Source of the DNA: an uncultured Verrucomicrobiota bacterium
GTDB lineage: Bacteria; Verrucomicrobiota; Kiritimatiellia; CAYTQP01
DNA: 13,499 bases
Assembly (NCBI GenBank): GCA_964440175.1
Contig: CAYTQP010000068.1
Location: forward strand, 1-13,499
Direction of reading: 5' to 3'
Below the pieces are notes generated by a model. That model made no database searches. It saw only the letters and a program-made list of their open reading frames with translations, and was not told the origin of the DNA. Positions 1,382 through 4,452 of the stretch are shown here, in pieces; position 1 is the first letter of the stretch; every line of letters starts with the position of its first letter. Made by a program: the position numbers and the translations under genes.

Positions 1382-2497
1382 ATGGGATTGCTTAACAGTC
1401 TGCGTGCCGAGTTTATCGACATTATTGAATGGCGAGATCAAACCAGCGATGTGCTGGTGTATCGTTTTGAGCGTCACGATCATGAGATCAAGGTGGGGGC
1501 TCAACTCATTGTTCGACCCGGTCAGCGGGCGGTGTTTGTCAATGAAGGCAAAATTGCGGATATATTTAACAAGGGAACATATCGGCTCGAAACAAACAAT
1601 CTCCCCGTTCTGGCGACATTGAAAGGCTGGAAATACGGGTTTGATTCGCCATTTAAAGCCGAGGTTTATTTCATCAACGCAACCGAACTTCTCGACCGCA
1701 AGTGGGGCACAACTTCGCCAGTTATGATACGCGATGCCGATTTCGGGGCTGTGCGCCTGCGGGCACGCGGGAATTTCGCGTATAAAATCGCTGACACCAA
1801 CGAGATAATCTCTAGGTTTGTCGGCTCACGCGGGACGTTCTATACCAATGATATGGAGGGGCAACTGCGCACACGCATAATATCCTCGTTCTCAGACACG
1901 CTGGGGGAACTGAAGATTCCAGCACTCGACCTACTCACACAATACGATGAGATCAGCGCACTAATGACTGAAAAACTCAACGAGGTCTTCGATGAACTTG
2001 GACTTGAACTACTCTCGTTCACACTCGAAAATGTGGACGTGCCCGAAATGGTGCAGAAGGCCATTGACGAGCGTGCGTCAATGGGTGCGGTCGGGAATTT
2101 GAATAATTACACGAAGTTTCAAGCCGCAAACGCTATGCGTGATGCCGCCGACAACGAATCCGGCATGGCGGGAGGTATGATGGGCATGATGGTGGGAGGT
2201 CAGCTTGGCGGCGTGATGAACGTGGCATCACAGCAGAATACGTCGCCCACCCCGATAGCCACCGTCAGTTGTCCGAAATGCGGACAGGCAGTCTCGGAGA
2301 ATTCGAAATTCTGCGGCGGTTGTGGCGCAGATATGACCCCGAAGGTCAATACTTGCCCAAAATGCTCCAAACCCGTCTCGCCCTCAGCCAAATTTTGCGG
2401 CGAATGCGGGACGGCACTGAGCGCAACCTGCAAAAAATGCGGAGAAGAATTGAAACCAACAGCGAAATTCTGTCCGTCATGCGGAACTGAACAATAA
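1382..2497 (+). CDS. SPFH/Band-7 family protein (Band_7_1, YdjI-like 'virion core protein-like' subgroup) with three tandem C-terminal zinc-ribbon motifs
   Basis: RBS AAGGGG upstream of ATG. N-terminal region (…EWRDQTSDVLVYRF…LIVRPGQRAVFVNEGK…LATLKGWKYGFDSPFKAEVYFINATEL…KWGT) matches the pattern I recall for Bacillus YdjI-type SPFH proteins. Met/Gly-rich linker (GMAGGMMGMMVGGQLGG). Then 3x C-P-K-C-x(9-10)-K-F-C-x-x-C-G zinc ribbons (residues 297-367). Confidence 0.85.
   Translation: MGLLNSLRAEFIDIIEWRDQTSDVLVYRFERHDHEIKVGAQLIVRPGQRAVFVNEGKIADIFNKGTYRLETNNLPVLATLKGWKYGFDSPFKAEVYFINATELLDRKWGTTSPVMIRDADFGAVRLRARGNFAYKIADTNEIISRFVGSRGTFYTNDMEGQLRTRIISSFSDTLGELKIPALDLLTQYDEISALMTEKLNEVFDELGLELLSFTLENVDVPEMVQKAIDERASMGAVGNLNNYTKFQAANAMRDAADNESGMAGGMMGMMVGGQLGGVMNVASQQNTSPTPIATVSCPKCGQAVSENSKFCGGCGADMTPKVNTCPKCSKPVSPSAKFCGECGTALSATCKKCGEELKPTAKFCPSCGTEQ
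2270..2488 (+). repeat. Three tandem ~23-codon zinc-ribbon repeats (CPKCGQAVSENSKFCGGCG / CPKCSKPVSPSAKFCGECG / CKKCGEELKPTAKFCPSCG) at the 3' end of the SPFH gene
   Basis: Protein-level tandem repeat is clear. DNA-level conservation is partial (aaattctgcgg / aaattttgcgg / aaattctgtcc). Confidence 0.8.
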
Positions 2498-4452
2498 TGG
2501 GCTTATCACACAAAAAAATTGCGCGGCATCCATATTGGACACTGCCGCCCGCGATCGCTTCCATCTGCGCACTACTACCCACCACGGTTCTGGCGCGAGC
2601 GGGTGGCGGCGGAGGGTTTAGCGGTGGCGGGGGGGTCAGCGGCGGAGGGGGTGGCGGCGGGGGCGGGGATCTTATCGCTTTTCTTCTATGGTTGCTTATC
2701 ACCCATCCACTGATCGGCGTACCCGTGATAATCATCGTCATAGCCCTTTTTATAATCTCCAGTAAATCGGGCTATTCGGCTCATGTCTCCAGCACAATTC
2801 GCAGGGGATACGCCACACACAATTCGCAAAAACTCACCGTCGGGCTTGATCGTCTTCGCGAACGGGATCCAGCGTTTGATCTGGACGCTTTCACTAAACG
2901 CTGTATGTCCGCTCTTCCAAAAGTGCAGACAGCTTGGTCGAATCAAGACATGACCCCCGCCCGTCATCTGGTTTCCGATGGAATATATGAACGTTTTCAA
3001 CTACAGCTAAAGATGCAGAAAGGTTCCTGTCTCCGCAATGTGGTGAGGGATGTGAATGTCATCTCCGTAAAGATCGTCGGCATGCAGTCTGACAACTTTT
3101 TCGATGCTCTGCACGTACGGATTGACGCAACGGCTGTCGATTATACGGAAGACATCCGCACCGGAAAAAGAGTACATGGCAACACCACTCCTGAAGCCTT
3201 TACTGAAATATGGTCATTTCTGAGACGACCTGGCGCGAAGACGCTTAGTACTCCGGGTTTGATTGAGGGATTTTGCCCCAACTGTGGAACGCCACTGAAA
3301 ATCTCTGACTCGACAAAATGCCCATCATGCCAAGCGATTATCAACTCTGGCGAATATGACTGGGTGCTCTCCGAGATAACACAAATGGAGGTTTGGCGTG
3401 ATACTGCGACAAGACCAATTCCCGGACTGGCAGAAATGCGCAAGAAAGACCCGGCGTTCAACGTACAGCATATAGAGGACAAACTCTCTGTCATATTCTG
3501 GCATCACTGTGCCGCAACGTTTTTCGCCGACGAAAAATATCTTAAAAAACTGACCCTGCCGGAATACATCAAGTCAAACGCCAGCGATTTTATGGCTCTC
3601 AAAAACGGTAAACACCGGTTTTTCGCGGACACCTCCATCGGATCTGTCGATTTGGCAGGAATTGAACTGGCCGACGAGGATGACGATTTTGACCGCGTTC
3701 ACGTTCAGGTTAAATGGTCAGGGCATCTAGAGGAATGTGAAATTCCGTCCCTCATTAAACCAGCATACAGTCGTTCACAAATAAAATCACAGGATTTCAT
3801 CCTGGTTCGTCGCAAAGACGCGCTGACATCGCGTGTGAACACGCTTACCAGTGCCCACTGCCCGGGATGTGGCGCACCGCAGACAATCAATACAAACGGG
3901 GTCTGCGAATATTGCGGTCTAGCGCAAAACGACGGTAGCGGGGACTGGGTGCTCTCCGATATACAACCATTCTTTACGTTCGCCGTCAAATTCAAGGATG
4001 CCTTGAAAACAAAGGCGGCCTGCGCCTCGACCGATATTTTTGAAAGTCGGCTCTCAAAACGCGAAAACGAACAGCTACTGCAATGTGCGGCAGCGGTTAT
4101 GCTGGCAGACGGCATCATTGACCCCAAAGAGGAGAAAGCCCTGAAAAAGATGGCCGGACGCAGAGGAATCACCGATACGCGACTGAAAGAGCTTATCGAA
4201 AATCTACGCATCAACGGCATCGTCAAGCTACCCGAATCCCTCAAAGGACAGGAAGGTCATGAGTTTACGAAGGCACTGGTGCAAATGTGTCTGGCAGACG
4301 GCAATGTCTCCCGTAGCGAAAAAGAGCTCATAAAATCACTGGTGAAGCATATGTCTTACAAAGATGTAGACATCGACAGAATGATCGCGACAGAACGGAA
4401 CAGACTTTATCAACAATCAAAACAGGTTATAAAAACAGCAAAAGGGGTGTAA
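2497..4452 (+). CDS. Membrane protein of 651 aa: signal-peptide-like N-terminus, poly-Gly segment, TM segment, two tandem Tim44-like (NTF2-fold) modules each containing an inserted CxxC…CxxC zinc ribbon, and a C-terminal TerB-like domain
   Basis: Start ATG overlaps the upstream stop (TAATG), so translational coupling. Residues 36-57 are G-rich ([22 protein letters not shown]). Hydrophobic stretch 59-88. Module 1 (res 121-296) and module 2 (res 315-490) both begin R-E/K-R/K-D-P-A-F and end CPxCG…C..C…DWVLS(E/D)I. Module 1 shows the Tim44-like pattern (…AW…D…V.VKIVG…HVRIDA…G…EIWSFLRR). C-terminal 520-640 has two (L/M)ADG…E(K)…L motifs typical of TerB. Confidence 0.8.
2602..2667 (+). repeat. GGN-codon run encoding a 22-residue glycine-rich tract (low-complexity, slippage-prone)
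   Basis: Seen directly: ggtggcggcggagggtttagcggtggcgggggggtcagcggcggagggggtggcggcgggggcgggg. The opposite strand gives a spurious poly-Pro ORF. Confidence 0.8.

Follow-up and report, generated by a model that had tools for sequence, protein, structure and literature searches.

A YdjI-type SPFH gene coupled to a Tim44-like, TerB-bearing membrane protein gene in a Kiritimatiellia contig: a candidate pspA-less counterpart of YdjI/YdjG

The closest described system to the locus analysed here is pspA-ydjGHI (samGHI) of Bacillus subtilis, in which YdjI (SamI), a soluble SPFH protein of the Band_7_1 family, has a low-complexity linker and one or more C-terminal zinc ribbons (PMC8581546). YdjG comprises two zinc ribbons, an NTF2-like domain and a transmembrane (TM) segment, and YdjH combines a TPM domain with a low-complexity segment (Ravi et al., PMC11237479). 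YdjI itself is soluble, and its membrane foci are lost upon deletion of ydjG or ydjH (PMC8581546; bioRxiv 10.64898/2026.02.06.704340). In this study, we examined contig CAYTQP010000068.1 (assembly GCA_964440175.1) of an uncultured Kiritimatiellia bacterium, a stretch of 13,499 nucleotides (nt) referred to below as the window, in which two overlapping genes, designated gene 1 and gene 2 together with their products, encode a YdjI-type SPFH protein and a membrane protein composed of Tim44-like modules, zinc ribbons and a TerB domain. To our knowledge, the delivery of YdjI-type SPFH proteins to the membrane and sensing by their partners are known from B. subtilis only. The two genes are most suitably classed as a YdjI-type SPFH dyad that lacks pspA and has another protein as its membrane partner. 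By analogy, and at an evenly balanced level of confidence, we read it as a pspA-less variant of YdjI/YdjG in which gene 2 would act as the membrane receptor and possibly as a sensor. What is new here is the observation that a YdjG-type protein of ~370 amino acids (aa) holds the position after the SPFH gene in most other Band_7_1 operons and that gene 2 replaces it.

As in B. subtilis, the neighbour of the SPFH gene encodes a membrane protein with one TM segment, in which zinc ribbons and an NTF2-type fold occur together. The membrane partner is nevertheless different, being N-terminally anchored and bearing two ribbon-containing Tim44-like modules and a TerB domain, and the SPFH gene comes first in the gene order, unlike the arrangement in B. 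subtilis. No Pfam match to pspA (PspA_IM30) was obtained among the window proteins, in agreement with an earlier reading of the DNA alone (hereafter the original prediction), and no TPM-domain (YdjH) protein was found in the window or among the 25 commonest families of flanking open reading frames (ORFs). Gene 2 also invites comparison with the Tim44/mL45/TimA family, whose members are likewise membrane-proximal and lie beside an anchoring helix; gene 2 differs from them in its duplicated module, the ribbon carried by each copy and the fusion to TerB. Tim44 serves as the tether of mtHsp70 at TIM23, and mL45 holds the mitoribosome at the membrane. A further comparison concerns TerB proteins, including TerB of the ter operon, the N-terminal domain of DjlA and DUF533/YebE, which share with gene 2 a helical repeat with acidic motifs and are found at the cytoplasmic face of the inner membrane, where the TerB domain of gene 2 is also predicted to lie. 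Gene 2 differs in lacking a ter operon or a J domain, its TerB domain being a C-terminal appendage of a Tim44-like protein; none of terZ, terA, terC, terD and terE was found in the window or among the commonest flanking-ORF families.

By its architecture, gene 1 is predicted to be a soluble SPFH protein of the YdjI/SamI type. Pfam assigns it to Band_7_1 (PF13421) with an E-value of 1.8e-83 and a score of 279.8 bits against a cut-off of 24, the match spanning positions 1-210 of the 211-position profile. DZR/Zn_Ribbon_1 models match three stretches of the C-terminal region, in which six CxxC pairs (12 Cys) distributed across aa 297-367 form three ribbons. The Pfam search thereby confirmed the domain content that had been read from the DNA alone, namely an SPFH domain of the Band_7_1 family followed by three zinc ribbons. 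No hydrophobic or TM segment was detected in gene 1, the top 19-residue Kyte-Doolittle value being 0.98. The AlphaFold2 model, built with 62 homologues, has a predicted local distance difference test (pLDDT) score of 79 and comprises an SPFH fold, helices, a disordered linker and the ribbons. Across these 62 homologues, conservation is highest in the motif LPxLATLKGWKYGFxSPFKAE (aa 74-94), which occupies a loop with pLDDT <50 in the model and represents a candidate contact site for the membrane or a partner. The three-ribbon architecture is common to all of the top ~85 homologues, which are at least 53% identical to gene 1.

In gene 2, Pfam recognizes a Tim44 domain (PF04280) at aa 116-248 (E 2.3e-24, above the cut-off), a DZR ribbon at aa 259-283 and a TerB domain (PF05099; E 6e-8, 33.4 bits against a cut-off of 24.4). 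A second Tim44-like module is not detected by Pfam. Alignment of aa 105-300 with aa 301-495 by hhalign returned a probability of 99.7% (E 2e-26), and the AlphaFold2 model (pLDDT 86.4; predicted template modelling score 0.82) contains two alpha+beta Tim44-like modules, so the second module can be regarded as real, and the composition of two Tim44 modules, ribbons and TerB given in the original prediction holds in full. The best structural matches of the model were Tim44 and mL45, which places it in the Tim44/mL45 fold. Four CxxC pairs (aa 260, 275, 455 and 470) make up two ribbons, one in each Tim44-like module, and their eight Cys residues are invariant among 72 homologues; each module closes with a conserved DWVL strand. 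The TerB region is itself a two-fold internal repeat, with a probability of 98.4% by profile alignment. Its D-G-x5-E motifs are conserved in both repeats: no variation was seen at D538 and E545 or, in a 21-sequence alignment, at D601, G602 and E608. The TerB domain probably binds metal.

No curated family spanning the whole of gene 2 was found in Pfam, NCBIfam or PADLOC. The NCBIfam models TimA (NF033778; 29.3 against a threshold of 200) and Tim44_TimA_adap (NF033779; 44.9 against 80) both remained below threshold, and DjlA gave a weak NCBIfam match. In the literature searched, TerB with Tim44, or Tim44 with SPFH in bacteria, are nowhere mentioned together. The view that this combination does not correspond to a described system thus stands, given the lack of any mention of TerB with Tim44 in the literature searched and of a PADLOC or NCBIfam family for gene 2.

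The N-terminus of gene 2 consists of a basic and then a hydrophobic stretch, followed by a near-invariant ARA, the conserved Gly-rich stub and the TM segment, for which the top 19-residue Kyte-Doolittle value is 2.69 and the model shows helices at 55-69 and 71-123. Among the 72 homologues, R34 and G36 are invariant and A33 is nearly so. The predicted topology places the Gly-rich stub in the periplasm, followed by one TM helix, with the remainder of the protein in the cytoplasm; zinc ribbons and TerB are cytoplasmic-type domains and are therefore consistent with this arrangement. The motif at aa 35-56 (2599-2664), past the first hydrophobic stretch, is conserved across phyla. A mere signal-peptidase site with its spacer would not usually be so conserved, and the motif may have a role of its own.

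The linkage of the two genes was assessed from both sides. Among the 66 species loci of gene 2 with enough upstream sequence, a Band_7_1 gene lies directly upstream on the same strand in 12. By our own estimate, which assumes about one Band_7_1 gene among the thousands of genes in a genome, ~0.01 such cases would be expected by chance in 66 genomes. In gene 1's own SPFH clade, a gene 2 relative is almost always next: direct look-ups found one immediately downstream in four of five cases, and 17 further gene 1 homologues among the top ~85 are probably linked, their contigs matching those of gene 2 homologues exactly in length. The metagenome scan with gene 1 returned mostly Band_7_1 proteins of ~50% identity and is a poor gauge of linkage within this clade, but it brought to light the YdjG-type dyad described below. 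Junctions in the linked loci are either ATGA/GTGA overlaps, seen in L002, L003, L005, L006 and L161 (locus numbers are our own), or gaps of 27-181 nt; the overlap in one of the look-ups is 4 nt. An adjacency so far beyond chance argues that gene 1 and gene 2 form a real functional pair, and the four look-ups, the 17 indirect cases and the recurrent overlaps uphold the original prediction on this point. The accompanying expectation of co-occurrence across genomes was borne out in part: the pair recurs and gene 1's clade is mostly linked, but with 12 of the 66 gene 2 loci showing the arrangement, gene 1/gene 2 is not an obligate cassette.

In the gene 2 tree, linked loci occur in three places. 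The first is the window's own clade, in which all sufficiently flanked members are linked; the second is a pair from Bacteriovoracaceae and Planctomycetota (L028, L046); and the third comprises L066 and L080, in which the SPFH protein has a GYF_2-type tail and no CxxC pairs. Elusimicrobiota show a further arrangement, with gene 2 followed by a divergent SPFH gene. In the SPFH-domain tree, the linked three-ribbon proteins form one clade, the L066/L080 proteins nest among YdjG-linked SPFHs, and the Elusimicrobiota proteins are far removed. This placement of the linked SPFHs suggests that the association arose at least three times, and the events look independent; both trees were built by neighbour joining and carry no support values, so the count of origins is approximate. 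GYF_2-type SPFH paralogues (Pfam PF14237) also occur elsewhere in Victivallales genomes. The single look-up that was not linked (L163:1-7095) holds a gene 1 homologue of 55% identity with no gene 2 next to it. The gene for that homologue is the last of an operon that also contains DUF4178 and DUF350 genes, a spermine-synthase-like gene and genes for an amine oxidase and a polytopic membrane protein; the arrangement is reminiscent of the PspA neighbourhoods with a polyamine link reported by Ravi et al. (PMC11237479).

A different protein occupies the corresponding position in most other Band_7_1 operons. Among the 53 Band_7_1 metagenome loci (~50% identity to gene 1) with enough flanking sequence, 34 carry a same-strand gene directly downstream whose ~370-aa product has two zinc ribbons at its N-terminus, then a globular domain, and a TM segment at its C-terminus. 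The identity of these products to the protein encoded behind the gene 1 homologue of Sporosalibacterium is 27-45%, and their family is very large, with 6949 matches at E<1e-5. The resulting dyad, found in metagenome loci and in Sporosalibacterium, agrees with the present locus in SPFH family, strand and downstream position of the partner, and some of its SPFHs also have three ribbons (L084, L164); the partner, however, is not gene 2. By analogy, the Band_7_1 dyad with the ~370-aa protein looks like YdjI/YdjG without pspA. In searches with five YdjG-type queries (tblastn), no YdjG-type gene was found in the window or in any gene 2 locus, which indicates that the two partners are mutually exclusive in this slot. 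Gene 2 thus replaces the YdjG-type zinc-ribbon TM protein in the operon position after the SPFH gene, and it is this closest analogue that the original prediction missed. Between gene 2 and the YdjG-type family, hhalign pairs the second zinc ribbon of the former with a ribbon of the latter (probability 93.6%).

From the YdjI-type architecture, the tight linkage, the independent juxtapositions and the replacement in the slot, we infer a mechanism in which the two proteins would interact physically, in a complex sitting beneath the inner membrane. Gene 2 would be the integral inner-membrane receptor of the soluble SPFH scaffold formed by gene 1 and would recruit it to the membrane, as YdjG and YdjH recruit YdjI in B. 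subtilis. Gene 1 would then oligomerise, providing a platform for membrane maintenance or stress-response factors encoded elsewhere, and the Tim44-like and TerB parts may, more speculatively, report the lipid or ion state. As to the putative contact surfaces, the SPFH domain is a more likely candidate than the ribbon array, because gene 2 also pairs with ribbon-less SPFHs. The presence of zinc ribbons on both partners had been put forward as part of their common theme; since gene 2 also pairs with CxxC-less SPFHs, these ribbons are unlikely to be the contact. The presumed sensing and stress role would most likely serve membrane upkeep rather than phage defence.

Beyond this pair, gene 2 belongs to a widespread family. 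A word-indexed search yielded more than 539 full-length relatives, for which the only NCBI label is 'TIM44-like domain-containing protein', and a profile search gave 1695 clusters (50% identity) at E<=1e-30, the best 150 of which are mostly ~620-720 aa long, with few shorter or longer. A gene 2 relative is encoded in no fewer than 595 stretches of species-representative genomes. The family extends over Victivallales and other Lentisphaerota, Kiritimatiellia, Planctomycetota, Fermentibacteria, Riflebacteria, Elusimicrobiota and Bacteriovoracaceae; its neighbour-joining tree mostly tracks taxonomy, and most members have no adjoining SPFH gene.

Other neighbours accompany gene 2 in particular lineages. 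In 10 loci of Lentisphaerota/Victivallales, the gene for a DUF4404 coiled-coil protein of ~110 aa with the C-terminus ...MLSDIGI lies upstream of the gene 2 relative on the same strand, in most cases immediately next to it. In six Fermentibacteria loci, the gene for a 173-aa PLD (HKD) protein with a Cys-rich tail overlaps the end of the gene 2 relative, and this protein could be a lipid-modifying partner. The remaining gene 2 loci have unrelated neighbours, and synteny is conserved across Fermentibacteria.

Several observations weigh against reading the pair as a pspA-less YdjI/YdjG. The ~370-aa protein matches YdjG by architecture alone; none of the 120 family matches listed was the named B. 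subtilis YdjG, and their labels were generic or absent. No homology between gene 2 and the YdjG-type family was detected outside the ribbon, either with a YdjG-type sequence or with a profile in hhalign, and the anchors differ, the TM segment being N-terminal in gene 2 and C-terminal in the YdjG-type protein. The two are therefore treated as analogues and not as shown homologues. Furthermore, ~80% of the gene 2 species loci have no SPFH gene within 8 kb, which indicates that gene 2 has a function of its own. Finally, no third gene recurs near the pair, whether pspA, TPM or another: in the flanks of the SPFH-linked loci, no family occurs in more than two of 104 ORFs, and the neighbourhood thus gives no indication of the output of the complex.

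The independent life of gene 2 leads directly to an alternative by analogy, in which it would be a housekeeping inner-membrane protein that might hold a chaperone, a ribosome or a lipid-handling factor at the membrane, with the SPFH protein as an occasional modulator. The size of the family (the 1695 clusters above), with its fixed length and architecture, fits such a role, as do the largely taxonomic tree, the absence of an SPFH gene near gene 2 in most species, the lineage-specific partners (DUF4404 in 10 loci and the small PLD protein in six) and the best structural matches to Tim44 and mL45. Yet no ribosomal, chaperone or translocon gene recurs beside gene 2, and the repeated independent capture of SPFH genes, together with the near-constant linkage of gene 1's clade, argues that the tie is not incidental. 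We consider this alternative unlikely, while acknowledging that it overlaps with the YdjI/YdjG-like reading and is compatible with much of it. That the adjacency is accidental and the genes functionally unrelated is scarcely credible. The unrelated gene 3 downstream lies equally close to gene 2 (2 nt), so tight spacing alone proves little, but the 12 cases seen against ~0.01 expected in 66 genomes fall in at least three separate lineages, start/stop overlaps recur among them, and the synteny contradicts such an explanation.

The domains themselves could point to a metal or oxyanion stress module whose TerB domain and zinc sites would act as sensors or buffers of divalent cations or tellurite-like stress at the membrane. 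TerB exceeds the Pfam cut-off and has invariant acidic D-G-x5-E motifs in both repeats, and the eight invariant Cys of gene 2 are joined by twelve CxxC Cys in gene 1. We nonetheless regard this as distinctly improbable: the flanks show no recurrent ter genes and none for metal transport or metal regulation, the CxxC pairs resemble ordinary structural zinc ribbons, and TerB also occurs in proteins without a role in tellurite resistance. An abortive-infection-type anti-phage system acting on the membrane, a role that the original prediction had entertained, appears more improbable still. TerB and SPFH domains may occur in some defence contexts; the TerB region has a weak PADLOC match to the candidate PDC-S48 (E 1e-4), for which no stretch passes alone, and the six Fermentibacteria PLD genes match the DrmC and MkoB models through the PLD fold. 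On the other side, neither protein belongs to a significant family of PADLOC-DB 2.0, gene 1 giving no match at all, and a search of 2.9 million viral contigs with the gene 2 profile returned no relatives. The flanks are of a housekeeping kind (including folD, pepA, DAHP synthase, superoxide dismutase and FtsH), and, the PLD genes aside, no defence family matches more than three of the 141 nearest neighbours. The gene 2 tree is largely taxonomic, synteny is conserved in Fermentibacteria, and the literature searched gives no relevant link between SPFH proteins and anti-phage activity. The defence role proposed for the locus thus finds no backing in PADLOC, in viral copies or in the flanking genes.

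If the YdjI/YdjG-like reading is correct, the locus would constitute a second, pspA-free system bearing on the idea of an SPFH receptor. The membrane partner would be swappable for an unrelated protein assembled from similar parts, namely zinc ribbons, an NTF2-type fold and one TM segment, and the recurrence of these parts in the swapped partners would point to them as the makings of an SPFH receptor. A wider and more tentative conjecture, which we would not yet expect to hold, is that the gene 2 family comprises stand-alone, hitherto unrecognised sensors of inner-membrane state (lipid packing or divalent cations), common in the Planctomycetes-Verrucomicrobia-Chlamydiae (PVC) group and neighbouring phyla and coupled to lineage-specific effectors. 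The effector would then be the SPFH scaffold in the present locus, a small PLD lipid hydrolase in Fermentibacteria loci and the DUF4404 coiled-coil protein in Lentisphaerota/Victivallales, and zinc-ribbon-bearing NTF2-fold modules, whether Tim44-like or YdjG-type, would serve generally as docking receptors for cytosolic Band_7_1 SPFHs. The pairing with gene 1 provides a first functional lead for a large family known only by its 'TIM44-like domain-containing protein' label; its members come from phyla that have received little study, and the lead is relevant to the function of bacterial Tim44-fold proteins.

The features of the locus and of the comparison loci are collected in Table 1. The ORFs and the junction confirmed the gene coordinates and the one-base TAATG overlap of the original prediction. 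The sequence at the junction is ...GAACAATAATGGGC, in which the TAA stop codon of gene 1 (2495-2497) and the ATG of gene 2 (2497-2499) have one A in common.

Table 1. Coordinates of the features in the window and in the comparison loci (L numbers)
Feature	Position	Strand	Basis or detail
Gene 1	1382-2497	+	ORF, 371 aa
Band_7_1 SPFH domain of gene 1, aa 26-235	1457-2086	+	Pfam
Gly/Met-rich low-complexity linker of gene 1, aa 258-293	2153-2260	+	Sequence reading; low pLDDT at 261-265 and 279-290
Three tandem zinc ribbons of gene 1, aa 294-370, six CxxC	2261-2491	+	Pfam DZR/Zn_Ribbon_1, CxxC positions
TAATG stop/start overlap, gene 1/gene 2	2495-2499	+	Sequence reading
Gene 2	2497-4452	+	ORF, 651 aa
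Signal-peptide-like N-terminus of gene 2 to ARA, aa 1-35	2497-2601	+	Sequence reading; predicted cleavage
Gly-rich stub of gene 2, aa 36-56, predicted periplasmic	2602-2664	+	Conserved motif; pLDDT <50
TM helix of gene 2, aa 57-95, then basic stretch and long stalk helix	2665-2781	+	Kyte-Doolittle, model
Tim44-like (NTF2-fold) module 1 of gene 2, ribbon CPNC...CPSC aa 260-278, closing DWVL strand	2809-3396	+	
Tim44-like module 2 of gene 2, ribbon CPGC...CEYC aa 455-473	3397-3981	+	hhalign, model secondary structure
TerB of gene 2, two repeats (D538/E545; D601-G602/E608)	4009-4449	+	Pfam, internal repeat, conservation
Gene 3, LacZ-type glycoside hydrolase family 2 (GH2) beta-galactosidase	4455-7574	+	1039 aa
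Promoter-like site TTAAAA-17-TATAAT, 5' of gene 1	1298-1326	+	Consensus scan, 10/12 matches
Band_7_1 with GYF_2-type tail upstream of gene 2	L066:357-1484, L080:208-1326		
~370-aa partner loci	L083-L160, e.g. L096:7126-8232, L138:6204-7310; L164:7146-8255		
DUF4404 loci	L010, L018, L019, L021-L025, L030, L042, e.g. L018:7450-7785		
PLD loci	L035:9731-10252, L041, L050, L053, L058, L064		

Gene 1, gene 2 and gene 3 are closely packed on the plus strand of the window, and a scan for terminator-like sites between them found none. The promoter-like site upstream of gene 1 is weak, such sites in the region being no more frequent than in shuffled sequence, and an Rfam search found no riboswitch 5' of gene 1. 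Gene 3 starts 2 nt past the stop codon of gene 2, and its product has a hydrophobic, signal-peptide-like N-terminus; it may be co-transcribed with gene 2 at this locus. As a third member of the pair it was rejected, since it never occurs beside gene 2 relatives in 80 other loci. The nearest relatives of the locus are found in Victivallales and Kiritimatiellia, and the contig, which is also present in ENA, derives from a metagenome assembly. According to Pfam searches of the window proteins, the flanks are ordinary. Downstream lie folD, a pepA-type M17 aminopeptidase gene and a gene for a NosD-like beta-helix protein. Divergent from gene 1, at 200-1186 on the minus strand, a 328-aa Y1/REP-type transposase-like protein is encoded. 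It has weak matches to Y1_Tnp and to the REP-associated tyrosine transposase (RAYT) model, below the NCBIfam cut-off, and covers the 146-position RAYT model only in part; it may represent a domesticated or fused form. A tRNA-Gly(CCC) at 7705-7779 on the minus strand was identified by Rfam (67.9 bits) and ARAGORN. It lies within a 181-aa ORF (7451-7996, minus strand) that is listed as a gene in the public record, has no Pfam match, shares 124 nt with the 3' end of the beta-galactosidase gene and is probably spurious.

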